This document shows, in pieces, positions 8,916-39,428 of a stretch of DNA of 64,000 bases (position 1 is its first letter; each line of letters begins with the position of its first letter). Under the pieces are notes generated by a model, which did no database searches, was not told the origin of the DNA, and saw nothing but the letters and a program-made list of their open reading frames with translations. Source of the stretch: Naegleria gruberi (taxonomy: Eukaryota). The DNA is taken from assembly GCA_000004985.1 (NCBI GenBank), contig GG738856.1, one strand, 5' to 3'. A program made the position numbers and the translations under genes.

Positions 8916-11900
8916 ATGTATAAAGTTAAAACCACCACTGATCCAATAACCATTACAAATAATAGTTTGATAATAGCAGAGTCAACTGAAATAAAAGAGG
9001 GAAGTGTAACAGGTGTTGATAATTCATCTCAAATACTTTCGTCTGCTTCAAGTTCTTCATTATCAGCTCTGACTGGAAAGAGTTTAGTTTCGTCTTTACT
9101 TTCTAATATTTATTCTATCATTATTACATTTCGTCCAAAAGAAAGTTTGAATAATTCAACTTCTAAAATTGTTTGGGCGATAATTTTTCATATTTATTTA
9201 ATTTATAATTCAATTGTTGTTTCGTCATTTCCAATACCTTATTCGAGACAAGACGAATCTAAATTATGGGGTTATATTCCAGCATGGATTTGGAGAGTTT
9301 TATTCTTTCCAATGAATTTTGGATGTGAATTTTATCCATATGAAGCAATTGTAACATTATCAATACTATTTCTAGTTTTGGAAATTGCAACTATTTTTGG
9401 ATTTTATTGGTGTAGATGGGCTTCTAAAAAAGGAGGTAAATTATATGAAAAAGGTTTGTTTAATGGGTATTAAAATTTAAATAATTTTTAAAATAATTTT
9501 TCAATAGTTAAACAAATCATTCAAGCAATTGTTATCTTTTATAGAATTTTTACCATTTTTATAATTTACATTCATAGTTTATTACTTTCTCCTAATATTT
9601 CAGATATGACTTCCTATTTTTATCCATCTGTTTCATTTACTAATACTCCACATATTGTATTTGCTTGTGTTGGTGTGATTGGTATTATACTAACTTTAGT
9701 AATTACCATTTTTGGAATTTATTTAACAATTGAAACAATTCCACCAACTTCATACAAAACATTCTTTTCACTTGCTTTAATTTATCCATTCTGTTCATTA
9801 ATTGTCACTAATCAAATAAGTGTCATTGCAAATATTATTTGTAGTGAAAAATTCTCCTTCATTTCCTCAATTATTAAGATTATTCTAAATATGGTAGTAT
9901 TCTGTTTAATGTTTAGAACATTTCCATTTTTTAGAAAATGGGAAAATTGTTTCTTCTTGGGAATTGTTGGTTCTAAAATTTTGGCGCCAATTGTTCCCTT
10001 AGTTTTACATTTTGTTAAGGGAAATGACATTATTGGCGGATCATTGACAGGTGTCACATTTATTGCAGCCTTAATTGGTTTCGTATTAGCAAGTCTATTT
10101 TCCTATATTTATTCCAGTTTACATTTGAGACATGTTAGAAAATTATTGGATTACAAATCAGAAACAAGTAATACTTTACAATATTTGGAACATTCAAAAG
10201 ATGTACAAAATTCAATTTCACTCTTTCTTCGATTTTCATTAACTCAAACAAGAAATTTGACAAATTTAGAAGGAAGTGATTTTGATTTTGCAAAATATTT
10301 TGTTTTACAAAATGGAAAAAACATGTCATCTGCTGAAATGTTAATTACCTGTTCAATGTTTATTGCATTTGGTCAATTGGAGGGATATGATAAAAGTCAA
10401 GCATGTGCACTTGGTTTAGCATGTTTACAAAAAGCAGCAAAGAATTCACCCAATCAAATTCAAATATTTCACATCATGCTAAGAATGGAAGAATTGGAAC
10501 ATTTAGCCTTTCATGGAAATAATTTGGAAGTTTTAAGAAGATTGGAAACTTTAGAAAAAAAGGTAAAAATTTTAGGAAGAGCTCACAAAACATTTTTTAA
10601 AGAATTATTGAATGAAAAGCCAAAAATTACAAAATTGGAAAATATCAATCGTACATGTTGTGTACTTTACAATGAATGTGATAAGATTTATGAGAATTTA
10701 TTGAATATGAGTAGAAATAATAAGGCACTTTTGAAATCTTATGCTTCCTATTTGGAAAAATATAAATGGGAATTCCAATTAGCTCAGGAATTTTATGAGG
10801 AAGCTCAAGAGGCTGAAGAAGATAAGAAAACTGCACAAATTATATTGAAATCTAGACGAAAGTCAATGAAAGGTGAAATTCCACAACCAATTCCAGAATC
10901 AGCAAGTAGAAGATTCAGTATCACCAATACTTCATATATGAATGATGAAAATTGGGATTCGGTTAGTTGTGCAGCAGCTGAAGAGAATGAAGATAGAAAG
11001 GATAATATCATTAGAAGTGCTATTAATACTCCTATGAATACTTTGATTTATTCATTATCTTTCTTATTGATTAGTTTAGTTTCAATTATTGCTTTGGCTA
11101 TCATTGCACCAATGGCATTGAGTTATTCTGCAACCATTGATATTAGAATGTCAATGCAAGAGAAAGTATGCTTAATGTCAGGTGTTCCTTACAAGATGCT
11201 TTCACAAATCAAAGCCCTCCAATCAGAACATGCCTTGAGAGGTTTCATTTCTCCTCAAATGAAAAATTCAACCTATACTCAAACTAATCTCATGTTAGAT
11301 TTAACAGAAGAAGTAATAAGTGCAGGAAGTAATGGTAAACTAATTCCAGAAGTAGTCCAAGCCTATTTAAATAGTGAATATATTGTAAGCATTCCAATTA
11401 AGAATTATTCACTTGAAAATACTTCAATTATTCCTGAATATTCACAAACTAATACTTCACTATCTTTCTATATGGGTACTATTCTAGCTCAGGGTAGAAA
11501 TGTTCTGTTACAATTTTCAGATTTGGAAACTTTGACAACTCATTTGGATAACAATTATCCATTTTTATTTTTCTATTACAATAGAATGGTCATGACAAAT
11601 GCATTTAACAAATTTTGTACAACATTTGTGAATGCTAGTGTTGATTCATTGGATCAGAATTTCAATTCTTTATTAATTGCTTCTTGTTCAGTTATGGTAG
11701 TTTATCTATTTTTGGCAATTTCTTACTTGTTAGTAATGCGTATGCATACTAAGAGAATTACTATGGAAATTAAGGGCGTATTCAAAAAGATTCCAAAAGA
11801 TGAAATTGGAAAAATTTATCATAATTTTGATAAGAAATTGGACGATACCATGAATTCATTGAATTCATCCATATTGAAACCTAATCGTTTAATTATTTTA

Positions 11901-13862
11901 TCAGGTTGTGTTACCATTCTAATAGTTTGTATGGGTATTATTTTGATTCTCATTGAGTATAAACTAAATTCAGATAGAGCTTCACTTTCAATGAATAATC
12001 TCAGTATAATTAATAGTGTATTATATAGAGTTTCAAGTGTTAATTTCAGAGTTAATGAAATGATTCAAAGATCAAAATATAGTCAATTGACTACTTTTAA
12101 TCAATTGAGAGATTCAAGTGTAACGGATATTCAAGCTATTCAAAAATATTGGTATTCCATAATTTTGGGAAATGATAAATCTGGTTATCAATCAGCAGTG
12201 GTTGGAAAATATTCAGATATTGATGCTCAATTGAGTAATACATGTAATGATACTATTGAAATGAATTTTGCAAACACTACTAATGATAACTTATGTTTTG
12301 GATTGAATGATTTCATTACTGAATTCATTTCTAGAGCTACTGAATTGAATGAAGAAGCTTTTAAACTATCTGATTCGACAAGTGACTTGACAAGAAGATA
12401 TATTGATAGACTTTTCTATCTTTCTCAAGTATTGACTCAACAATTATTAGGATTTGTATCTAAATTTGTTGCTCATGAAAAAACTGCTCAAACTTACATT
12501 ACAGCAACTTCAATTTCTGTTACAATTATTGTAATCATTGTAATGGGAGTATTGTGTTTCAATTCTTTACTTAGTTTTTGGAAGGAACGATTCTGCTTGA
12601 GAATGCTATTGAATTATCTTAATATGGAAGTGATTGAAAACACTTTCCTATTGAAGGAATATGTCATGTCCAATTCTGTTTCATTTTCAAATACTACAAC
12701 AAAAATTATGGGAAAGCTCAATAAGATTCATTCAGAGGATAGCTCAACATGTGGTGATGAATCCATTCTAATGGTCAAAACAGTACTCAATGGAGGTGTC
12801 GATGCAAGTATTCTTTGTAATAGAGAAGGAAGTATTACAATATTTAATAATGCCGCTGAGGAAATGTTTGGTTATGCAAGAGCTGATGTTTTAGGTGATG
12901 CAATTCAAACTCTATTCACAGAAGAATATTCATCTCGATTGACCAAATTAATGAGTTCAGAATCAACATGTAAAGGTGATACCTTCGAAGCTATTGGATT
13001 ACGCAAGAACAAGTCAACCTTCAACTCAAAAGTCAGTGTTTCAGTCACAACCTACGATAAGAAACCCATGTTAATTGCCTTTATTAGAGATGTAACTCCT
13101 GAAAAGAAACTAAATTTGTTAATTTGTGAAGAAAAAAAGAAGAGTGAAGATTTATTATTGAACATTCTGCCACAAGCAATGGCTTCACGATTGAAGAATG
13201 GTGAGACGAATCTGTACGAAAAATTCAATGATATTAGTGTATTTTTTAGTGATATGGTTGGTTTTACATCGATGAGTTCTGGAATGCAACCAAGTGAGCT
13301 AGTTCAAATGCTCAACTCAATTGTGCAGGGTTATGACAAGTTGACAGAAGTTCATGGAATTGACAAGATTAAAACCATTGGTGATGCTTATTTTTGTGTT
13401 GGTGGACTTCAGGCAAGCAAAACTTCTGATCATCCAGAAAAGATGTTGGCATTTTCAATTGACATTATGTCATTTTTAAGAAGAACTAATGCTTCCACTA
13501 ACAAACCAGTTAATATTAGAGCAGGAATTCACACAGGTGAAGCAGTAGCTGGCGTAATTGGATTTAAAAAGTTTGCCTATGATTTGTGGGGAGATACTAT
13601 TAACACAGCTTCAAGAATGGAGTCAACCGGAGTTCCAGGAAGAATTCAAATTTCCAGAACAACCTATGAAAGAGTTTACGATTTGGGTTTTGAATTTGAA
13701 GAGAGAGAACAGGAAGTGAAAGGAAAAGGAAAAATGAAATGTTACTTGTTATCGAGTAAACATCATGAAAATCCAATGAATTTTCAAGATGATGATGTGA
13801 ATATTAGAACATTTCAGAGTACAGAGTTTTTGAGTTTGAAAGAACATCACGATTGTAAATAA
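8916..13862 (+). CDS. Polytopic membrane adenylate cyclase with a PAS domain and a catalytically complete class III cyclase domain; two exons
   Basis: ORFs 8916..9473 and 9606..13862 share a frame and are joined by a 72-nt (or 54-nt) intron. Many hydrophobic helices. PAS-like NREGSITIFNNAAEEMFGYARADVLG. CHD motifs FFSDMVGFT, KIKTIGDAYF, AYDLWGDTINTASRMES. The K and D specificity residues are of adenylate type. Confidence 0.85.
9436..9507 (+). other. Intron (72 nt; alternative donor at 9454 gives 54 nt)
   Basis: GTAAAT (or GTTTGT) ...TTTTTCAATAG. Both donors are phase 1 and give G|TT. The sequence downstream of 9508 is open in frame to 9606. Confidence 0.65.
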
Positions 13863-15586: not shown

Positions 15587-18001
15587 TTATTGTAAATCCT
15601 TCTCTTGTTCAGAGTGGAGGGCACGAATGAAATCTTCTTTCAATATTTGTGAAACATCACTAATTAGAAAATTTTCTTTCGTCCTTAGTGATACTCGTGG
15701 AGCAATTATTGAGACTCGAGTGAGAAGAAATAAATTCAAACGTTCAATAACTTGCTCGACAGTGTCATTCTGTGATATGTCAATTAAAACAGAAACACGA
15801 GAACCTTCCAATTTGATTTTGATTGTATGAATTTGAATTTTCTCTGTGGAAACCTTGACTGGTGTTTGATGCTGCATAGGTGGTGAATCGTTATAATATA
15901 TCAAAGTCATCTCTAGAGGAGAAAAGTTGTCAGGATAGAGAGGTCTTAACTCAATAGGAAATTCAGGAGTTTTCATTTGGTTATTAAAAACTTGTCTAAT
16001 TCTGAAATATTCTTCATTGGCTTCACTTGCATATTTGTTCTGATTACATTTTAGAAAGTAAGAAATTCGCAGTTCGTGCGCAGGTTCAAAATTTGGTTCA
16101 CTTTGCAATACTCTATCAATGTAACCAAGTACCTTTTCAGTGTGTTTCAACTTTGCATGAATGGAAGCTATGAATATTAAAATTGTAGAATTATTGGAAT
16201 AGTTTTTCAATAATTGCTCAGCATACGAAAGACCATTCTCATATTCATTGAAAATAACTGATAATTGAGAGGCAATCATACTCAAAACATCTGATTCCTC
16301 AAAATGGTCCAGCATTTGCTTGAAAATTTTCTTGGCTTTTTCAATCTCTCCAATTTCAGCATAGTACTGAACTAAATAAACATAGATTACCAAGCAATTG
16401 GGTTCCAATTCTCTTGCTTTTAGAAAATCTGGGAATGCTTTAAGCTTTTCTTCTTTTGTTTTACCAACTTGATAAATAATTATTCCTCTTTTCAAGTAAT
16501 AATGAGCTAAATCATCTAAACTGTTCCCATATTTTTCCAATATTTTAGTGTATTCAGCAATAAGGATGAATGTTGAGCCCATTTGCTCCAAAATACCCAA
16601 TTTGGCATTAATGACAGGAATGGAGAAATGTGATTTCAAGGAATTATCCAAACATTGTAGAGCTTGCTTAGTGTTACCCTTGTAGAGATGTAAGAATCCC
16701 TTCAATTGCTCCAACACATGACCACTGTTCGGATCTTGGTGTGTATTGAATTTTCTTGAGAGAAATTCCAAAGACTCAAGCAGTGTTAATGCCTTGGAGA
16801 TGTTTGGTAACTTTCCTCCATAAACTCTCTCCCAAACATGTATATCATCTCTTGATAAAAACATGGCCAAAAGCAAGCCAACACAGTATTTGATTCTAAT
16901 TTCAACAGCATCATCAATAGATAATTTCATATAATATTTGTCAAGTATTTCTATTGAATCTTCAATACTATTGGCATTCAAATGAGAAAGTATTCTATTC
17001 ATTTCTAAAACTCCTGTAAATTCTCTATCACCTATTATTTGGAGATTGTTGCATATGATTAATCTAAGATTATTAATGGTTAATATTTCCATTGCATTCA
17101 ACGATGATAATCTCTCCTTCTTATCATATGTTAGAAAGGATAATAATAGTAGCTCAAAGAATTGGTCAACCTCCCTCGTAGAGATTTCATTGATGAATTT
17201 TGCTTGAAACACTTCACTCCATGTATTCTCAATGGTTGCTTGTGTATTTTCGAGTTTTAAATTTAGAAATCGAAAATCACATTCATCTACAATATCCTTA
17301 AAACTAATTGTTGACTCGGGGAAGAGTATTTTGAAAAGTACAACACCCATACTCCAGCAATCGACTTTGTAATCATAGAGTCTATGTTTAATTGATTCAG
17401 GTGGTAAATATTCAAATGTTCCCCTATGTGTTTTCTTGGTGTTTTCAGTTTGTAAGGTTTCTCCAAAATCAGCCAATGCAATCTCAATAAATGTTTCATT
17501 TTCTTCATCAAATGATTTGACAAGAATGTTTGAAAGTTTGATATCACAATGAACAAGATTATGTTTGTGTGAAATATTGACAGCAATACATAATTGTGTC
17601 ATGATTTGACCAATTAGAAAATCAGTCAATCTCTTTCCTCTTGATGTGAAATATCTTTCAATAAATGTTTCCAAATCTCCATACTTGTAAAATGGCATTA
17701 CAATCCCAATATTGGAATGATGATTAATGTATTCCAAACTCTCTACCAAATATTCACATACAATACTCTTTCTCAAATTAAATATCTTCAATTCCTTTTC
17801 AATAATGAATTCTCTTTCCTCTTCTTCTAATAAATTAATAATTTTCAATGCAATTTCATGGTTTGAACAACGATCAAAGCATCGATATACAACTCCGTAA
17901 CCTCCTTCTCCAATAAACAGCGGATTCAAAAACCTGTCACAAAAAGAAGAAGGGAATGCATAAGGTTGACGTGACATTTTTTTGTAATGTGACACTGTCA
18001 T
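15587..18001 (-). CDS. Ser/Thr protein kinase with C-terminal TPR-like repeats (paralog A)
   Basis: GEGGYGVVY, IALKII, HCDIKLSNILV, ADFGE, YLPPES. TPR-like helical repeats in the C-terminal half. The likely true start is the second ATG at 17977, which has an A-run context and aligns with paralog B. Confidence 0.85.
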   Translation of the reverse strand: MTVSHYKKMSRQPYAFPSSFCDRFLNPLFIGEGGYGVVYRCFDRCSNHEIALKIINLLEEEEREFIIEKELKIFNLRKSIVCEYLVESLEYINHHSNIGIVMPFYKYGDLETFIERYFTSRGKRLTDFLIGQIMTQLCIAVNISHKHNLVHCDIKLSNILVKSFDEENETFIEIALADFGETLQTENTKKTHRGTFEYLPPESIKHRLYDYKVDCWSMGVVLFKILFPESTISFKDIVDECDFRFLNLKLENTQATIENTWSEVFQAKFINEISTREVDQFFELLLLSFLTYDKKERLSSLNAMEILTINNLRLIICNNLQIIGDREFTGVLEMNRILSHLNANSIEDSIEILDKYYMKLSIDDAVEIRIKYCVGLLLAMFLSRDDIHVWERVYGGKLPNISKALTLLESLEFLSRKFNTHQDPNSGHVLEQLKGFLHLYKGNTKQALQCLDNSLKSHFSIPVINAKLGILEQMGSTFILIAEYTKILEKYGNSLDDLAHYYLKRGIIIYQVGKTKEEKLKAFPDFLKARELEPNCLVIYVYLVQYYAEIGEIEKAKKIFKQMLDHFEESDVLSMIASQLSVIFNEYENGLSYAEQLLKNYSNNSTILIFIASIHAKLKHTEKVLGYIDRVLQSEPNFEPAHELRISYFLKCNQNKYASEANEEYFRIRQVFNNQMKTPEFPIELRPLYPDNFSPLEMTLIYYNDSPPMQHQTPVKVSTEKIQIHTIKIKLEGSRVSVLIDISQNDTVEQVIERLNLFLLTRVSIIAPRVSLRTKENFLISDVSQILKEDFIRALHSEQEKDLQ
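17456..17710 (-). repeat. Left arm of a 255-bp inverted near-identical tract (kinase core)
   Basis: The reverse complement matches 18321..18575 with about 5 mismatches by hand alignment. Confidence 0.85.
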
Positions 18002-18032
18002 TCTGAAAAAGAATCCAAAAAAATCTGGTCAA
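17978..18032. promoter_or_regulatory. Very short bidirectional promoter region between the head-to-head kinase paralogs
   Basis: Only 31-55 bp separate the two start codons. A-rich: aaaaagaatccaaaaaaatctgg. Confidence 0.4.
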
Positions 18033-20519
18033 ATGATCAGTCAAACTCAACTTCCCTCATGTTTTGGCAGTCGTTTTTCCAATCCTACACCAGTTGGAAA
18101 AGGAGCATATGGCACCACCTACTCATGTATTGATACACAAAATGATGATCAACAAATAATTGCTTTAAAAGTGATGCAACCAAGTGAAGGGACTGGTGAT
18201 ATTGCACTTGTAGAGAGAGAAGAAGAAATTTTCACAGCCATGAAGAATGTTCAGTGTGAATATATTGCCAAGAGTATGGAATTTCTAAATTATTTCGAAA
18301 GTGATGGTAGTGGTGGTTACATTGGAATTGTAATGCCATTTTACAAGTTTGGAGATTTGGAAACATTTATTGAAAGATATTTCACATCAAGAGGAAAGAG
18401 ATTGACTGATTTTCTAATTGGTCAAATCATGACACAATTATGTATTGCTGTCAATTTATCACACAAACATAATCTTGTTCATTGTGATATCAAACTTTCA
18501 AACATTCTTGTCAAATCATTTGATGAAGAAAATGAAACATTTATTGAGATTGCATTGGCTGACTTTGGAGAAACCTTTCGAACTGATCACACAACCAATA
18601 CAGATAAAAAGGGAACAGATGACTACTTACCACCAGAGGCCTTTGATGGCAAGTACGGATTCAAGATTGATTGCTGTAGTATGGGTGTTGTCCTTTTCAA
18701 ATTGCTTTGTCCACCAACTGATGTATCTATTAGAAACTATTTGGGAGAATGTCAAACTAAATACAAACACAAACAGCGTAACATTTTCTTTAGCCATTAT
18801 TGGTCAAAGAAGTTGGCGAAATACATGTCTGGTATTGAATATCTCAAAGATCAACCATTACTACTTTCAATGGTGAATGGATTTCTAACTTACGACAAGG
18901 AAAGTAGACTCACCATATTGAATGCTCTCGATCTATGTTGCATGATTATTATGATGCACATACATGGACAGAATAATAGTGTAAACTTAGACAATTTGGA
19001 GAATCCTTCACCTGTTTTGATACTATATGATCAATTATCATTGATTTCAGATTTCAATAATGGTTCAATGGAATTGTTATCCAAATATTACAATGAAACG
19101 AAGCAAGGAAATAGTTTAGGTATTGCATACATGGTAGGATTAATCTTTTGTAGCAGTCTATTGAAAAGAGATTTCAGAATTTGGGAATTTCAATTTAATT
19201 TACAAACACCCATTACCGATACAGCAACATTGGACAAAATGATACAAGATCTTGATCAACTATCACTGAAAATTAAGACCAATGAGCCATACTTGGGCTT
19301 TATATTTGAACAATTACATGCCATTTCACTAATGAACAAGAAAATGCCTGAAAAATCTTTACAAAGATTGGAAAACTCTACAAATTCATTCTTCACATTG
19401 GCATGCCAAAAAAAAAAGTTACTACTTGTAGAATTATTGAATGGAATGACTTATTCGTTGGTAGATGAATATTCCAAGCTAATCAAACTTTATGGTGACA
19501 AGAGTATGCTCTCTGGATACTTTTATTACAAAAGGGGTGTAATGTTATTCACCCTTTCTAATGATCATCAAAATGGTATAGCTGACTTGATACATGCAAG
19601 GAATTTATCACCAAATAGTTTGGGATTATATGCAATTATGGTAAACTGCTTTTTAACTATTGGCAGTATTGAAAATGCAAAACAAGTGTTTGAGCAAATG
19701 TTGTTATTGTCTGAGCACTTTGAGATTAATAGGTTAAACTTTATTGCAATGTTTTTATCCAATTGTTTAGGTTATTTGGATAAAGCATTGGAATATGGTG
19801 AAAAACTTACTAGTCAAGAACTGTATAGCAAGGACCCTGTATTACTTCTCTTTTTATCCAGAATCTGTAGTAATAGAGGCGATAGCTCAATGGAATTGGG
19901 TTATATAGAAACGGCATTGGATATAGATCCACATTGTTATCAAGCTCACCAAATGAAAATCCTATTTTATAGAGCAGCTTTGGATTTCACAGCAGAAAAA
20001 GAAGCTTTGCTCAAGTATACAGCTCTGAAAAGGCAAAACCTTTTGCATACCTCTGAATTTCCCATTGAACTTTTACCACTATTACCAGATGGCTCACCTC
20101 TTCCAATATTATTACTAAATGAACCTGAAAAGGATGTTACAAGAATTAAGGAAATTACTTTTAAGGAAGCTGAGAAGACTGTTCAACAATTTGAAACCAT
20201 TCAACCATCACTAATGCAAGAACCTACCACAAATGATTCAATTCTTTCACCAGAAATCATCATGCAAATCAAAGTGAAATTCAAAGGGAAAAACAATGCT
20301 GTTTTCATTGATATTTTGAAAACAGATACAGACATTCGTCAAGTATTAGATCGCTTGAATAAGATTGGAAACGAAAAGAGTACAGCATATGTTAATAGAG
20401 TGGCATTTTCAATAGTGAAAGACGATGATTGTATTTTAATTACATCAATTCATCAATTATCTAAATATGATGAAGTAGTGGCTCTCACAAGTGATGAAGA
20501 AAAAGAGTTTTGGGCGTAA
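18033..20519 (+). CDS. Ser/Thr protein kinase with C-terminal TPR-like repeats (paralog B)
   Basis: GKGAYGTTY, IALKVM, HCDIKLSNILV, ADFGE, YLPPEA. Same architecture as paralog A. Confidence 0.85.
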   Translation: MISQTQLPSCFGSRFSNPTPVGKGAYGTTYSCIDTQNDDQQIIALKVMQPSEGTGDIALVEREEEIFTAMKNVQCEYIAKSMEFLNYFESDGSGGYIGIVMPFYKFGDLETFIERYFTSRGKRLTDFLIGQIMTQLCIAVNLSHKHNLVHCDIKLSNILVKSFDEENETFIEIALADFGETFRTDHTTNTDKKGTDDYLPPEAFDGKYGFKIDCCSMGVVLFKLLCPPTDVSIRNYLGECQTKYKHKQRNIFFSHYWSKKLAKYMSGIEYLKDQPLLLSMVNGFLTYDKESRLTILNALDLCCMIIMMHIHGQNNSVNLDNLENPSPVLILYDQLSLISDFNNGSMELLSKYYNETKQGNSLGIAYMVGLIFCSSLLKRDFRIWEFQFNLQTPITDTATLDKMIQDLDQLSLKIKTNEPYLGFIFEQLHAISLMNKKMPEKSLQRLENSTNSFFTLACQKKKLLLVELLNGMTYSLVDEYSKLIKLYGDKSMLSGYFYYKRGVMLFTLSNDHQNGIADLIHARNLSPNSLGLYAIMVNCFLTIGSIENAKQVFEQMLLLSEHFEINRLNFIAMFLSNCLGYLDKALEYGEKLTSQELYSKDPVLLLFLSRICSNRGDSSMELGYIETALDIDPHCYQAHQMKILFYRAALDFTAEKEALLKYTALKRQNLLHTSEFPIELLPLLPDGSPLPILLLNEPEKDVTRIKEITFKEAEKTVQQFETIQPSLMQEPTTNDSILSPEIIMQIKVKFKGKNNAVFIDILKTDTDIRQVLDRLNKIGNEKSTAYVNRVAFSIVKDDDCILITSIHQLSKYDEVVALTSDEEKEFWA
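18321..18575 (+). repeat. Right arm of the 255-bp inverted near-identical tract
   Basis: Encodes IGIVMPFYKFGDLETFIERYFTSRGKRLTDFLIGQIMTQLCIAVNLSHKHNLVHCDIKLSNILVKSFDEENETFIEIALADFGET. Confidence 0.85.
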
Positions 20520-20585: not shown

Positions 20586-22937
20586 ATGGATAGAATTATC
20601 AAAACATCAAACACACAACATTATGTAATTATTGAAATTATTAAAAAAATGAAAAGAACTTTGGATGAGAATTCTGATAGCGAAACTGACGGCGAAAATA
20701 ATCCAAGAAAAAAATCTTCATCTTGCAATACTTCTTCCTACTTGGCAACAGATGCCAAGTTGTGTTATCCGTTCGGAGTGTTTGTTTCTCCCACTAACGA
20801 AATTTACATAGCCGATCAATATAATCATAGAGTGAGAAAGATATTAGAAAGTGGACGAATTGTTACAATAGCAGGAAATGGAAAAGGAGGGTTTAGTGGA
20901 GATGATGGATTGGCTACTAATGCACAGCTAAATTGCCCATCAAGTGTTTTTGTTTCTAATAAGAATGAAGTATTCATTGCTGACCAATACAATCATCGAA
21001 TTAGGAAGATATTAGAAAGTGGACGAATTGTGACAATAGCTGGAAACGGAGAGGAGGGATTTAGTGGAGATAATGGACCAGCTACAAGTGCCAGATTGAA
21101 TTGTCCTATGAGTATATTTGTTTCCAATATGAATGAAGTTTATTTTGTAGATTCGAACAATAATAGAGTCAGAAAAATATTGGAAAATGGAATTATTGTA
21201 ACAATAGCTGGAAATGAAGAGCTAGGATTTTCTGGTGACAGTATTCTTGCAACAAATGCAAAACTAAATGGACCTGTGAGTCTTCATGTTTCAGATAAGA
21301 ATGAAGTTTATTTTGCCGAGCTCAAAAACAACAAAATTAGAAAAATATTAAGAAATGGATTTCTTGAAACAGTAATGGGTGATGGATTCAGTACTACTTC
21401 TGTAAAAGTACAAAGTCCAACAAGTGTTTTTGTTTCTCCACAGAATGAAATTTATTTCTCTGATAATACCAGTAATAGAATTAGAAAAATATTGGAAAAT
21501 GGAAATGTTGTAACTGTTGCAGGAACTGGACAACAAGGATTCAGTGGTGATGGTGGACCTGCAACGAGAGCTCAACTTGCATGCCCTACAGGTCTATTTG
21601 TAACTTTGAATAATGAAATTTATTTTGCAGATTCTGCCAATAATAGAATTAGAAAGGTTTTGGAAAATGGAAATATTGTAACAATAGCAGGAAATGGAAA
21701 ACATGGATATAGTGGTGATGCACCATTTGATTTTTCATTGCATCCTCATATTGGAAGTACTAATTTGGAAAAACAAGAAACTGTGTTATTACAACGAGAC
21801 ATTTATTTCCCAAAGATTAAATTGAAAAAGTATAACAGAGATAGATTGTTTGGATTGGATATTTATGGATTTATGCCACTATTGGAAAATTTTTCACCTG
21901 AATTTAGCAAAACAGTGTTGAGAAATGAAAAACTCCTTTGTGAAATGGATTCTTCTCAACGAGAAATTGTACAAAAACTTATTGACTCTATGATTTATAA
22001 TGATGATAAGATGAATTTCAATGAAGAGTATACAGTCAATGTTTTGTATATTTTGGGATTCTTTAAAAATGCTGAATTTCTTGATTTGAAACAAGACATG
22101 GTTACCAAGTTTATCAATTCTCTTTCCTTGACATCTCTATCTTCTGTATGGGAGAAAGTTGAAGAATTATTGAAAATATGTGAAAATCTTGGACTTTCAA
22201 ACTTTATCCTTGAGAAGTTGAACAAATATTGCACAGAATATACTGCTGTTCAATTGAAATCTCCAGAAGGAAGCAAAATACTTTCAAATATTTCTATAAT
22301 ATTAAGGAACAGCGTCAGGATTTTCCCTTTAATGGCAATTTCAGAACCAAGTCCTATTATCATTGATGAAATTGTTGAAAAATTTCAGCAAGGAGTTAAT
22401 AGTTTATATAATGATAAGGGAACATATGATTTTCGTGTCAAATTGAGTGAAGATGAGTTTTTATATTGCCACAAAACTATATTAAGCTCTTCTAGCTCAA
22501 TATTCGAGACATTTTTTCAGAATCAAGAAATTGACAATATTAAAGATGGTTTCATGGTTCCAGATCCATCAGAAAATGTCGATTTGGTGAAGATTATAAT
22601 CCAAGCATGCTATAGATGTGGAAATATTGAGTTTAATTCCAATCAAAACATGTCCCTCCTCTCAACAGCAATGAAACATGAAATGAAATACCTTATCGAT
22701 TGTTGGTTGAAGAATTTTAAGATCAGTGTCGATAATTATTTCGAGGTAGTGTCTGTCTGTAAAAATTACTTACATTTACCATGTTGTGAAGAATTTTATC
22801 AACTATTACTAATGTTTGGATCAGTTTATCGTGCTAAGCTTTTCACTGATTGTGATAGAGTAGCATTGCTTCCTGATCAACTATTGAGAGCGTTACTAGT
22901 TCAGATTTCTAGTGATGGATTTATCTTTAATAGATGA
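20586..22937 (+). CDS. Six-bladed NHL-repeat beta-propeller protein with a C-terminal BTB/POZ-like domain
   Basis: Six tandem units of about 47 aa (P.SVFVS..NE.Y.AD..N.R.RKILE.G.IVTIAGNG..GFSGD). BTB-like YDFRVKLSEDEFLYCHKTILSSSSSIFETFF. The ATG at 20649 has the better A-run context. Confidence 0.8.
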   Translation: MDRIIKTSNTQHYVIIEIIKKMKRTLDENSDSETDGENNPRKKSSSCNTSSYLATDAKLCYPFGVFVSPTNEIYIADQYNHRVRKILESGRIVTIAGNGKGGFSGDDGLATNAQLNCPSSVFVSNKNEVFIADQYNHRIRKILESGRIVTIAGNGEEGFSGDNGPATSARLNCPMSIFVSNMNEVYFVDSNNNRVRKILENGIIVTIAGNEELGFSGDSILATNAKLNGPVSLHVSDKNEVYFAELKNNKIRKILRNGFLETVMGDGFSTTSVKVQSPTSVFVSPQNEIYFSDNTSNRIRKILENGNVVTVAGTGQQGFSGDGGPATRAQLACPTGLFVTLNNEIYFADSANNRIRKVLENGNIVTIAGNGKHGYSGDAPFDFSLHPHIGSTNLEKQETVLLQRDIYFPKIKLKKYNRDRLFGLDIYGFMPLLENFSPEFSKTVLRNEKLLCEMDSSQREIVQKLIDSMIYNDDKMNFNEEYTVNVLYILGFFKNAEFLDLKQDMVTKFINSLSLTSLSSVWEKVEELLKICENLGLSNFILEKLNKYCTEYTAVQLKSPEGSKILSNISIILRNSVRIFPLMAISEPSPIIIDEIVEKFQQGVNSLYNDKGTYDFRVKLSEDEFLYCHKTILSSSSSIFETFFQNQEIDNIKDGFMVPDPSENVDLVKIIIQACYRCGNIEFNSNQNMSLLSTAMKHEMKYLIDCWLKNFKISVDNYFEVVSVCKNYLHLPCCEEFYQLLLMFGSVYRAKLFTDCDRVALLPDQLLRALLVQISSDGFIFNR

Positions 22938-34838: not shown

Positions 34839-35603
34839 ATGTACTTTACTAAACCTGAAGATTATGGCTTACTCGAGAGTGGTCCAACTATGAACTATTG
34901 GATTTGGGTACCAACATTCCTTACTATTGCCTCCATGATGATCTCTGTCATTTCACAATATTTCTCCTATTTGTGGCCTGCTGTAGAATATAAGAAACAA
35001 TTCAAGAATAAGACAACTCACTATGTGTTCCTTTCATATGCTGTTAACCATACACTTTCTGCTATACTGACCACATTCACAATTGCCTATGCTAGATACT
35101 ATGGTACTTGTTATGAATCTAACATTTTTGAGATGGGTGTTCTCGAGTTGATCAAGTATATCCTTACTGTGATATTATGTGCTGTTCAACAGGTGGTCAT
35201 CTATGACTTTTTAATTTACCTTTTCCACAGAAGTTGTCATGTTAATAAGTGGATGTATATTCATATTCACAAATGGCATCACGAGAATAATACTCCACGA
35301 GGAATCTGTGATGGAATTTATGGTGATGCCTTTGAGGGAACTTTGGTGGCTTACTTTGCTGTTGGTCAAATGATGTTTTTCTCATTGCCAGTCAGTTCAA
35401 TTTGTCTCTTCTTATTGTATATTAGTTTCTTTGTCCAATTGAATCACAGTGGAAGAAAGGTTAAGATTCCATATTTCTATACTTTCAAATCCCATGCCAT
35501 TCACCATCGTCATTTCAAATATAATTTCTCTGAACACATTCCTTTGTGGGATTATTTGTTTGGAACATTGAAGTTGGACGAAATCAGTGACAATCAATTC
35601 TAA
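34839..35603 (+). CDS. Fatty acid hydroxylase superfamily membrane protein (sterol desaturase / methylsterol oxidase-like), tandem copy 1
   Basis: His boxes HRSCH, HKWHH and HAIHHRH. Several hydrophobic helices. 254 aa. Confidence 0.8.
   Translation: MYFTKPEDYGLLESGPTMNYWIWVPTFLTIASMMISVISQYFSYLWPAVEYKKQFKNKTTHYVFLSYAVNHTLSAILTTFTIAYARYYGTCYESNIFEMGVLELIKYILTVILCAVQQVVIYDFLIYLFHRSCHVNKWMYIHIHKWHHENNTPRGICDGIYGDAFEGTLVAYFAVGQMMFFSLPVSSICLFLLYISFFVQLNHSGRKVKIPYFYTFKSHAIHHRHFKYNFSEHIPLWDYLFGTLKLDEISDNQF
35241..35479 (+). repeat. High-identity tract shared with 36796..37034 (offset 1555 bp)
   Basis: About 6 mismatches in 239 nt by hand alignment. The adjacent central coding region is much more diverged. 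Confidence 0.75.
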
Positions 35604-36393: not shown

Positions 36394-37158
36394 ATGTACT
36401 TTACGAAACCTGAAGATTATGGCTTGTTAGAAAGTGGTCCAACTATGAACTATTGGATTTGGGTACCAACAGTGCTCTTCCTGGCTTCCATGGCTGTTTC
36501 CGTTCTTTCACAATGGTTTTCCTATTTGTGGCCTGCTGTAGAATATAAGAAACAATTCAAGAATAAGACAACTCATTACGTTCTCCTTTCATATGCTGTG
36601 AATCACTTCTTGAGCGCTCTGCTGACAACTTTTACAATTGCCTATGCTAGATACTATGGTTCTTGTTATGAATCCAATATATTCGAAATGAGTTTCTTGG
36701 AAATGTCCAAGTACATTATCACAGTTCTGTGGTGTGTTGCCCAGCAGGTACTTATCTATGACTTTTTAATCTATGTCTTCCATAGAAGTTGCCACGTTAA
36801 TAAGTGGATGTATATTCATATTCACAAGTGGCATCACGAGAATAATACACCAAGAGGAATCTGTGATGGAATTTATGGTGATGCCTTTGAGGGAACTTTG
36901 GTGGCTTACTTTGCTGTTGGTCAAATGATGTTCTTCTCATTGCCAGTCAGTTCAATTTGTCTCTTCTTATTGTATATTAGTTTCTTTGTTCAATTGAATC
37001 ACAGTGGAAGAAAGGTTAAGATTCCATATTTCTACTCGTTCAAGGCACACGCTGTCCATCATCGTCATTTCAAATATAATTTCTCTGAACACATTCCTTT
37101 GTGGGATTATTTGTTTGGTACCTTAAGATTGAGTGAAATCAGTGATGACCAATTCTAA
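36394..37158 (+). CDS. Fatty acid hydroxylase superfamily membrane protein, tandem copy 2
   Basis: Same length (254 aa) and the same His boxes: HRSCH, HKWHH, HAVHHRH. Confidence 0.8.
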   Translation: MYFTKPEDYGLLESGPTMNYWIWVPTVLFLASMAVSVLSQWFSYLWPAVEYKKQFKNKTTHYVLLSYAVNHFLSALLTTFTIAYARYYGSCYESNIFEMSFLEMSKYIITVLWCVAQQVLIYDFLIYVFHRSCHVNKWMYIHIHKWHHENNTPRGICDGIYGDAFEGTLVAYFAVGQMMFFSLPVSSICLFLLYISFFVQLNHSGRKVKIPYFYSFKAHAVHHRHFKYNFSEHIPLWDYLFGTLRLSEISDDQF

Positions 37159-37304: not shown

Positions 37305-39428
37305 TTACAATTCTTCAAAGCCAGCAAGTTGATTTGAGACAACTCTACTGACAGTGTCAGTGATACCTTCACCTCCAGAAACCAATTCTCTGATACCGCT
37401 ACTTTGTGCCCATTGATCTCCTAATCTATTGATATTTTCACTTGATTGTTCCAAAAGATGATTCAATCTTTGCAATCCATCAACCATGTAATTTTGCAAC
37501 ATGTCTTGTAATTGATCCTTAAGTCTTCTTCTAACATTATTCTGAATGTAACCAGATAAAACTCTCAACAGAATTTCGTGATGTTCTGCATGAGTGAATT
37601 TCAATTTCAAGTCATCAATATCGACAGTGATAGAGTTGTATTTGAACCATTCAGTATCACCAAGTTCATTAGTGGATGTATCAACATTAATCTTCAAGTG
37701 AATCATAACACCATCATCTCCAGTATCAATATTCAATAAACCTTCATCAGAGAGTTGTGGGAAAGAGAATCTCTTGAACCAAAATTGAACATCCTTAAAG
37801 TGGAATACTATTCCACTCAAGTGCAATACAAGGGTTGATTGAGTTCCTTGGAGACTATCAGCAAGCTTATCTTCACTATAATCAATGTCTGTAACAGAGT
37901 GACCAGACATTTTAACATGTGATGGTAACAAGTCAGATGCATTCATTCTCAAGCCCTTCAGTTCATATTCAACATTCTCATCAACATAATGAATATCCAA
38001 ATCTGTAAAAGATGATACAGTTTCCTTAATCATAGACACCATCATAACCTTCAATTCATTCAGANNNNNNNNNNNNNNNNNNNNNNNNNNNNNNNNNNNN
38101 NNNNNNNNNNNNNNNNNNNNNNNNNNNNNNNNNNNNNNNNNNNNNNNNNNNNNNNNNNNNNNNNNNNNNNNNNNNNNNNNNNNNNNNNNNNNNNNNNNNN
38201 NNNNNNNNNNNNNNNNNNNNNNNNNNNNNNNNAGTATCTACGAGTGTCCTTCTCAACTTGATCTAACAATTTGGAAAGCTCCTTGTCATTGCTGAATGCC
38301 TTATAGATATCTTGCAATGATTGTTCCATATCCTTGATGATCTTTTCATTACCAACCCATTGGATTAACAACTTTTCACCATTCTCTTTCATATTGATAA
38401 AGTACTTGTCATTTTGCATTTCCTTAACCAAATCGTTAACGTTACTCTCAATGTTATCATTGAAAATGAACTTGAGTTGATCGAACATGTTGGAGAATCC
38501 CAAAACTGCCTTTCTGTAAGATCTATTTGAAGAGAATTCCTTGATAAGTTCACTAAATCTATCATAAATTTGGTCTTCTAACTTTTCTTGCTTTAATTCA
38601 GCAGATTTGACATCTGACTTGGTAGGTTCTACTGATGCAGCAACAACCTTAGTCTTTTGCTTCTTGGAAGAAGATTCAACACTGGATGATTCTAAGAATG
38701 GCTTTTCCCAATCACTCTTATTCTTTGGAGTATCTTCAGTAACATCCATTTGATCCTTAACCTTCTCTTTCAACTCATCATCATCATCATCAAGATTATT
38801 GACAATTCTTTGAATGGCAGCTCTTGAGACCTTCGTTAGCTTGTACATGAATGTTAGTGAGGCTCTTATTTGACAATACTCTCAAATAGTTCAATGTATC
38901 AACCATTAAAAGTCTAAATGAGTTGGATCTAAACAGTTCAAAAATAAAATTGGAAAAGTTCTGAACTGATTCATAGAAAGACTTGGTTTCTTGATTGAGT
39001 TGGTCATTCACATCACTTGTGGTATCCTTAACTACATGTACAACTTTATCAGAGTACTTGTCAATGAACATGTTGGTATTGTAAATGAATTGTTGCAATA
39101 CCTGATCCTTATTCTTCTCTTCAATTAATTGTTTAACAATGTCTAACAGGTGAATAGCACGTTCTTGAATATTTTGACTTGATGTGACATATTGTGATGA
39201 TTTGTCAACAATATCTTTCACCTGTTCAACACCACTCAAAAGTTGTTCATTAGAAGGAATTTCACCCTTGGTAAGAGACTTTAATCCTTCAATGGTTTGA
39301 TCAATTGCCTTATTGTCAACTGTGACATTAACAATATTCTCTTGGATGTTTTCCTTTACCTCTTGAACAGTATCAGCAATTTTAGGAGTAATAGTTGTAG
39401 ATGAAGATGGATTCTTGATTTCTACCAT
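37305..39428 (-). CDS. Coiled-coil protein interrupted by an assembly gap; C-terminal beta-rich domain possibly Ham1/TULIP-like; exons 39428..38880 and 38839..(gap)..37305
   Basis: Three ORFs (38796..39470, 38060..38848, 37305..38054) are linked by a 40-nt intron and an N-run. The frame is open on both gap flanks. The first ATG is at 39428; the track start at 39470 is a GTG. Confidence 0.55.
38065..38232. other. Assembly gap (168 N) inside a coding region
   Basis: Run of n characters read directly. Confidence 1.
38840..38879 (-). other. Intron (40 nt)
   Basis: GTATTGTCAAATAAGAGCCTCACTAACATTCATGTACAAG with a CACTAAC branch-like motif. Phase 0 junction TTG AGA|CTA ACG resolves the frame change between the two ORFs. 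Confidence 0.6.

Follow-up and report, generated by a model that had tools for sequence, protein, structure and literature searches.

How can two genes whose DNA has diverged to saturation over nearly all their length share a segment of some 250 bp that is almost identical, silent positions included? The question is raised by a pair of protein kinase genes of Naegleria gruberi (Heterolobosea), located in a stretch of 64,000 nucleotides of contig GG738856.1 (assembly GCA_000004985.1) that is referred to here as the window. Gene A (15587..18001, minus strand) and gene B (18033..20519, plus strand) are divergently transcribed in a head-to-head arrangement, with their ATGs 31 bp apart, and each carries one arm of an inverted tract. 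An initial annotation of this DNA had described the tract as 255 bp long and about 98% identical, with some five substitutions, and had attributed it to recent ectopic gene conversion rather than to selection. The description proved accurate, and the attribution is borne out by the contrast in synonymous divergence, by the codons shared and by the comparison with an ortholog presented below. We consider it about 80% probable that the tract is the result of interlocus (ectopic) gene conversion, the two kinase genes being old paralogs placed head to head.

A nearly identical segment in two diverged kinase genes

When 17456-17710 is read as its reverse complement, it agrees with 18321-18575 in 250 of 255 bases. 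At its greatest extent, the high-identity core is slightly longer, 17454..17710 on the minus strand (codons 98-183 of gene A) and 18321..18577 on the plus strand (codons 97-182 of gene B), with 252 of 257 positions identical. Around this core the repeat finder delimited a looser pair of inverted arms, 17425-17710 and 18321-18606, of 286 nt each, 95% complementary and 610 nt apart, and the whole window has no other inverted repeat of at least 60 nt. The codons involved are homologous and in frame in the two genes, and both arms translate as IGIVMPFYK[Y/F]GDLETFIERYFTSRGKRLTDFLIGQIMTQLCIAVN[I/L]SHKHNLVHCDIKLSNILVKSFDEENETFIEIALADFGET. Alignment to solved CDPK kinases shows that the tract spans the beta5/hinge segment, alphaD, alphaE, the HCD catalytic loop and DFG. 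The initial annotation had it start at beta4/alphaD, a limit that has to be replaced by beta5/hinge, while its extension through the catalytic loop to DFG was correct.

The mismatches (given in gene B coordinates) are few and partly silent. Those at 18326 (GGA/GGG) and 18563 (GAC/GAT) are synonymous, the one at 18349 exchanges F and Y, and those at 18456 and 18458 fall in one codon and exchange L and I. Two of the five differences in the tract are thus concentrated in a single codon (18456-18458 in gene B, 17573-17575 in gene A), which is TTA (Leu) in gene B and ATT (Ile) in gene A. This codon could be the product of a multinucleotide change, a relic that patchy repair left in place or a selected difference.

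Both genes code for serine/threonine protein kinases. The open reading frame (ORF) of gene A encodes 804 amino acids, with a Pfam Pkinase domain (4.7e-40) and a TPR-like C-terminal region (TPR_19 and TPR_14), and its paralog gene B encodes 828 (Pkinase 6.5e-30). The scores against Pkinase (PF00069) were 138 bits for gene A and 105 bits for gene B, with a cut-off of 31.7. The expected kinase motifs are present in both, namely the GxGxxG glycine loop (GEGGYG/GKGAYG), ALK with the beta3 lysine, HCDIKLSN, DFG and PPE, and the closest solved relatives of the kinase domains are CDPK, ULK3 and DCLK1. The two proteins align colinearly over their full length with 38% amino acid identity, so that the tract stands in the place of its homologous counterpart and is neither an insert nor a partial duplicate.

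In the public data, gene A has the same length as an N. gruberi "predicted protein" (P0002, 804 amino acids) located on the same 602-kb contig, and gene B is 100% identical, from residue 48 on, to P0001, a "serine/threonine protein kinase [Naegleria gruberi]". This public model, of 781 amino acids, begins at Met48, and so leaves out the glycine loop and the beta3 lysine, encoded within 18033-18173. Starting the ORF at 18033 restores both elements, together with an N-terminal motif conserved with gene A and with Naegleria lovaniensis. Judging from this conservation, the annotated start of the public gene B model is probably wrong.

Divergence in the tract and in its flanks

The divergence along the codon alignment of the two genes was far from uniform. 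Inside the tract the nucleotide identity was 98%; outside of it the identity of the two genes fell to 50% in DNA and to 38% in protein, with a third-position identity of 0.385. The initial annotation had called the flanking coding sequence only weakly similar even in protein, in agreement with the 34-36% found for the separate flanking regions. In a GENECONV-type test, the longest perfect run reached 106 nt, whereas shuffling the match/mismatch string 10,000 times never produced a run longer than 26, and the maximal-segment scores were 207-239 against at most 33 in the permutations. The binomial probability of finding 252 matches in 257 positions at a background identity of 0.50 is about 6e-68. 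The identity of the tract is far beyond chance.

The silent positions follow the same pattern, as the initial annotation had maintained. Third positions in the tract were identical in 82 of 86 cases compared with the background of 0.385 (P about 3e-29). The Nei-Gojobori estimates for the tract were about 0.05 for dS (synonymous substitutions per synonymous site) and about 0.017 for dN (its nonsynonymous equivalent), whereas the three flank regions gave dS values larger than 1.7 or undefined, i.e., saturated, and dN values between 0.59 and 0.71. Where both proteins carry the same residue, the same codon was used in 79 of 81 cases in the tract and in 104 of 227 (46%) outside (P about 1.6e-24). 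Selection acting on the protein is unable to produce this pattern, because it is the synonymous sites that are identical and dS that sets the tract apart. As for composition, the tract has a GC content of 0.30 and a GC content at third codon positions of 0.21, both similar to those of the host genes, and a foreign origin of the segment was accordingly rejected.

A weaker signal extends beyond the tract. Over the 40 codons at each side of it, identical codons were found at 23 of 33 shared residues compared with 81 of 194 elsewhere (Fisher P=0.004, a post hoc comparison). Besides, there is a secondary patch of 45 nt encoding DCWSMGVVLFK (17325..17369 on the minus strand in gene A, 18662..18706 on the plus strand in gene B), detected with the repeat finder and by codon comparison. 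Here the two genes are 84% identical and use the same codon at 8 of the 9 residues they share. An older or longer conversion may have left this patch behind.

The boundaries and the geometry of the arms

The initial annotation had described the boundaries as sharp, which applies to one of them. At the 5' edge the identity is at background level immediately before 18321, and the tract adjoins there an 18-nt indel. At the 3' edge the identity fades over about 30 nt, with 20 of 29 positions still identical in 18578-18606, before it reaches the background and a one-codon indel. No microhomology shared beyond the tract edges was found at the junctions. The indel of the 5' edge is an insertion specific to gene B (18303..18320, plus strand), seen in both the protein and the codon alignments, that consists of a short GGT/AGT run (GAT GGT AGT GGT GGT TAC, encoding DGSGGY); the placement of this gap depends on the alignment. 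The insertion is a probable heterology barrier that ended the tract at its 5' side.

The arms are nearly symmetric about the start of the two genes, the repeat being centred on 18015.5 and the interval from ATG to ATG on 18017. The 610-bp spacer (17711..18320) is 95% coding, and comprises 291 nt of gene A (codons 1-97, 17711-18001), the intergenic gap of 31 bp (18002-18032) and 288 nt of gene B (codons 1-96, 18033-18320). The distance of 610 bp given by the initial annotation was therefore right, but the shared promoter that it placed between the arms is confined to an intergenic gap of 31 bp at most, and the remaining 579 bp code for the N-lobes of the kinases. The geometry of the paired genes is that of a decayed palindrome.

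Relatives of the two kinases and the age of the duplication

The family to which these proteins belong is very small. When 1.84 billion representative proteins were searched exhaustively with a profile, A, B and one cluster from N. lovaniensis were recovered, the remaining matches being generic kinases with at most 184 bits. A word-indexed search of 5.8 billion protein clusters found only the two N. gruberi proteins and no third protein bearing the tract, and each of the two N. gruberi clusters has one member on one contig. Exact-protein look-ups of both ORFs in public assemblies gave no match (the public model of gene B being shorter), and a metagenome scan with degenerate patterns of the tract retrieved only kinases 23-26% identical. 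The third family member is the single-copy N. lovaniensis C9374_002966, of 981 amino acids. We inspected its locus and found no adjacent paralog, no head-to-head partner and no synteny with the window.

The comparison with this ortholog puts the tract and the flanks at very different depths. In the N-terminal flank the protein identities were.35 between A and B,.32 between A and N. lovaniensis and.30 between B and N. lovaniensis; in the C-terminal flank of the kinase domain they were.36,.42 and.32, and in the C-terminal region.34,.28 and.26, in the same order. In the flanks, then, the distance between A and B is about equal to that of either gene from the N. lovaniensis ortholog. In the tract, the values were.976 for A and B, and only.45 and.43 for A and B, respectively, against N. 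lovaniensis. Measured against one outgroup and by distances only, the paralogs would be dated as young from the tract and as old from the flanks. Since the flank identity of A and B is comparable to their identity with the N. lovaniensis ortholog, the A/B duplication dates back almost as far as the divergence of the two Naegleria lineages. Constraint on the protein cannot explain the identity of the tract either, because the same segment is only 43-45% identical to the ortholog. At both positions of the tract where the amino acids of A and B differ, gene A agrees with N. lovaniensis, although this does not indicate which gene was the donor.

The ortholog has a single annotated intron of 240 nt (PYSW02000017.1, 11303-11542), located after residue 434. 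This site coincides with about 40 extra aligned residues in both N. gruberi proteins, and the annotated intron may actually be coding sequence, or the region may be a lineage-specific insertion. We considered exon boundaries as an explanation for the limits of the tract and discarded them, the intron lying far from the tract edges.

Probable gene conversion between the arms of an old inverted duplication

Genes A and B would be, in our reading, the arms of an old inverted duplication, in N. gruberi, of a Naegleria-specific kinase-TPR gene. Nearly all of the 2.4-kb arms would have diverged to saturation, while the 257-bp segment coding for the catalytic core would have been homogenised by non-reciprocal intrachromosomal recombination. 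The process could start with a break or a stalled fork in one copy, followed by resection. The 3' end would then invade the inverted copy located some 0.6 kb from it, either within its own chromatid or in the sister, and DNA would be copied by repair of the synthesis-dependent strand annealing type before the end returns. The tract would finish where homology is lost, i.e., at the 18-nt indel on the 5' side, and on the 3' side where the mismatch density rises towards the one-codon indel. The edges observed would fit heteroduplex or synthesis tracts limited by heterology. The last of these events is recent, the tract dS of about 0.05 being less than about 3% of the flank divergence.

This interlocus conversion, the arm-to-arm homogenisation of an old inverted duplication, has probably been repeated. 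A succession of events since the duplication is favoured over a single first-time event because strand invasion needs homology, and the present flanks are essentially random in DNA. The island that can be converted would shrink with time as its flanks escape. The excess of identical codons beside the tract and the secondary 45-nt patch hint at older, longer tracts.

Several points weigh against this interpretation. The frequency of conversion falls steeply with divergence (PMC3966223), and starting a first conversion would be difficult in copies that were already as diverged as the flanks are today. The history of repeated events that would avoid this difficulty has as its one support the flank signal, which is weak and post hoc, and third-position identity near the tract showed no significant rise (P=0.19). 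The sequence comes from one assembly. The incongruence between tract and flanks was measured with a single outgroup and by distances, and no in-group species or strain provided an orthologous pair.

Alternative explanations

Replicative template switching would produce the same outcome by a pathway other than homologous recombination. Either by quasi-palindrome correction or by a microhomology-mediated switch, the nascent strand would jump during replication to the inverted paralog about 0.6 kb off, copy some 260 nt and return, with no requirement for long homology. Inverted copies 610 bp apart have the geometry that would favour switching between strands, and flanks with 50% nucleotide identity would be too diverged for classical strand invasion if this were the first event. 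However, no microhomology is shared at the junctions beyond the tract edges, and neither end of the replaced segment is shifted in register or in frame, a precision that homology-guided repair accounts for more easily. The template switches known so far mostly copy tens of bases and involve short spacers. The excess of identical codons in the flanks again favours repeated events driven by homology, and we regard template switching as an unlikely source of the tract.

An artefact of assembly or cloning, by which one arm would have been built from reads of the other copy while the real genes are uniformly diverged, has in its favour that a single public assembly carries these genes and that the exact-protein look-ups provided no second source. 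Against it, the arms differ at five positions, so that neither is a simple copy of the other; both ORFs are open and in register; and the gradual decay of identity at the 3' edge is unlike a mis-join. The nearest assembly gap (38065-38232) is 20 kb off. Sanger reads of about 700-800 nt span a repeat of 257 bp together with unique flank. The N. gruberi genome is listed as Sanger-sequenced (PMC9928731). Because the two copies differ at five sites, are both in frame and come from a Sanger-sequenced assembly, we consider an artefact very improbable.

The inverted repeat might also be maintained as the substrate of a reversible inversion. By flipping the 610-bp spacer, a crossover in the tract would swap the 5' ends of the genes, with their N-lobes and start codons, and give two chimeric kinases that are still in frame, and the retained 257-bp repeat would let two loci encode four kinase combinations (the N-lobe of A or B with the C-lobe and TPR tail of A or B). 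What favours it is geometry, the arms being inverted, in frame, over homologous codons and symmetric about the 31-bp gap. No evidence of a second orientation was found, the ortholog distances give no sign of swapped N- and C-terminal histories, and conversion explains the pattern fully. Recombinase domains were absent from the subset of window ORFs searched, i.e., ten large ones and three neighbours of the kinase pair. Both the inversion and the combinatorial repertoire that it would provide seem to us scarcely credible; if the spacer inversion does occur, this free-living eukaryote would possess a domain-swap switch based on recombination.

A further alternative is that, with no transfer of DNA, selection has kept the segment identical, either in its nucleotides or in its protein, owing to an embedded RNA element or to an extremely constrained catalytic core. 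This idea finds some appeal in the fact that the tract covers that core (hinge, HCD loop and DFG), but it is effectively refuted by the dS contrast and the codons shared at synonymous sites, by an ortholog whose protein has been free to vary over the same residues, and by the lack of any Rfam match in the tract, a fold z-score of -1.3 and an ordinary composition. The search for an RNA element in 17000-19000 gave as its only Rfam match a sub-threshold small nucleolar RNA outside the tract, and this candidate was rejected.

The arms as a potential cruciform

The initial annotation had also seen in the arms a large potential cruciform or recombinogenic inverted repeat. Folded as single-stranded DNA, the region forms one long stem with a minimum free energy of -369 kcal/mol for 1231 nt, something that is trivially true of any inverted repeat. 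The repeats that are prone to cruciform formation and fragility have long, near-identical arms, like the ones found here (257 nt, 98%), and spacers of tens of bp or less, unlike the 610 nt of this locus. With such a spacer, cruciform extrusion and palindrome-type fragility are expected to be unlikely, and the term "recombinogenic" describes a geometric possibility only.

A second pair of paralogs and other genes of the window

The window has about 32% GC, a dense array of intron-poor ORFs and no tRNAs. It contains another pair of neighbouring paralogs, two fatty-acid hydroxylase genes in tandem (34839-35603 and 36394-37158, both on the plus strand) of 254 amino acids each and 89% amino acid identity. 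They differ at 111 of 765 nt in a mosaic fashion, with some 240 nt nearly identical (about 35240-35480) beside patches of about 65% identity (about 35130-35200), and the identity drops to random level just outside the coding sequences. We regard them as a candidate for a second gene-conversion pair in the window. Judging from this mosaic, it looks as if neighbouring paralogs of this genome routinely undergo conversion.

Next to gene B, on the plus strand, 20586-22937 encodes a protein of 783 amino acids with NHL repeats and a BTB/POZ domain, the NHL blades being encoded by five direct repeats of 168 nt (20742-21725) that are 63-74% identical. On the other side of the kinase pair, 9606-13862 (plus strand) encodes a protein of 1418 amino acids that combines TmcB-type TPR, PAS and adenylate/guanylate cyclase catalytic domains, an architecture that we take to be typical of the expanded Naegleria cyclase family. 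The assembly gap mentioned above is the sole run of N in the window (168 nt), and lies inside or beside the ORFs of 38060-38848.

Comparison with known systems

Conversion between adjacent inverted paralogs is a known phenomenon, of which the Drosophila Hsp70Aa/Ab genes are presumably an example. In Caenorhabditis elegans, it has been described between adjacent head-to-head paralogs in the hsp16-1/hsp16-48 modules and in hsp70-7/hsp70-8 (PMC3966223). The kinase pair resembles these nematode cases in that neighbouring duplicates in opposite orientation, a few hundred bp apart, combine identity at silent sites with an old duplication. There, however, whole genes or modules have been homogenised, whereas here homogenisation is limited to 257 bp, about 10% of each gene, in a saturated background of 38% amino acid identity.

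The ampliconic palindromes of the human Y chromosome also undergo gene conversion from arm to arm, over 9 kb to 1.45 Mb, and are kept at 99.9% identity along the whole arm. Like in them, the inverted arms of the kinase locus lie about a spacer and would be kept identical by intrachromosomal non-reciprocal recombination. In contrast, the 2.4-kb kinase arms have decayed almost completely, and only an island remains.

Elsewhere conversion is partial or mosaic and ends at simple sequence or at a heterology, as in the human gamma-globin genes HBG1/HBG2 and in the exon-scale tracts of RHD/RHCE. Short conversion tracts have been described as well in fog-2/ftr-1 of C. elegans, at a KS (synonymous divergence) of about 0.28 (PMC3966223). 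With all of these the kinase locus shares a short tract in diverged duplicates and a boundary at an indel or simple repeat, in our case the 18-nt GGT/AGT run. The flanks of the kinases are, however, far more diverged than those of fog-2/ftr-1, their dS being saturated.

In the yeast model of inverted Alu repeats, long inverted repeats are fragile and form cruciforms, and the fragility drops steeply once the spacer exceeds tens of bp. With at least 250 bp and 98% identity, the kinase arms are comparable to those repeats, but their spacer is 610 bp and there is no indication of instability.

Our literature searches on gene conversion and on concerted evolution of paralogs in Naegleria brought up no description of this locus or of conversion between nuclear paralogs. 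The kinase tract is a new instance of a known process and not a new kind of system. Only one aspect of it is unusual, the small and sharply defined size of the island compared with the saturated divergence that surrounds it.

Implications

The locus provides a textbook-clean case, in Naegleria, of a very short conversion island in duplicates that are otherwise saturated. It sharpens the question of how conversion starts, or persists, once the flanks share no usable homology. It is also a warning for phylogenies of the Naegleria kinome and for the dating of duplicates, as trees or Ks values that include the tract would mislead.

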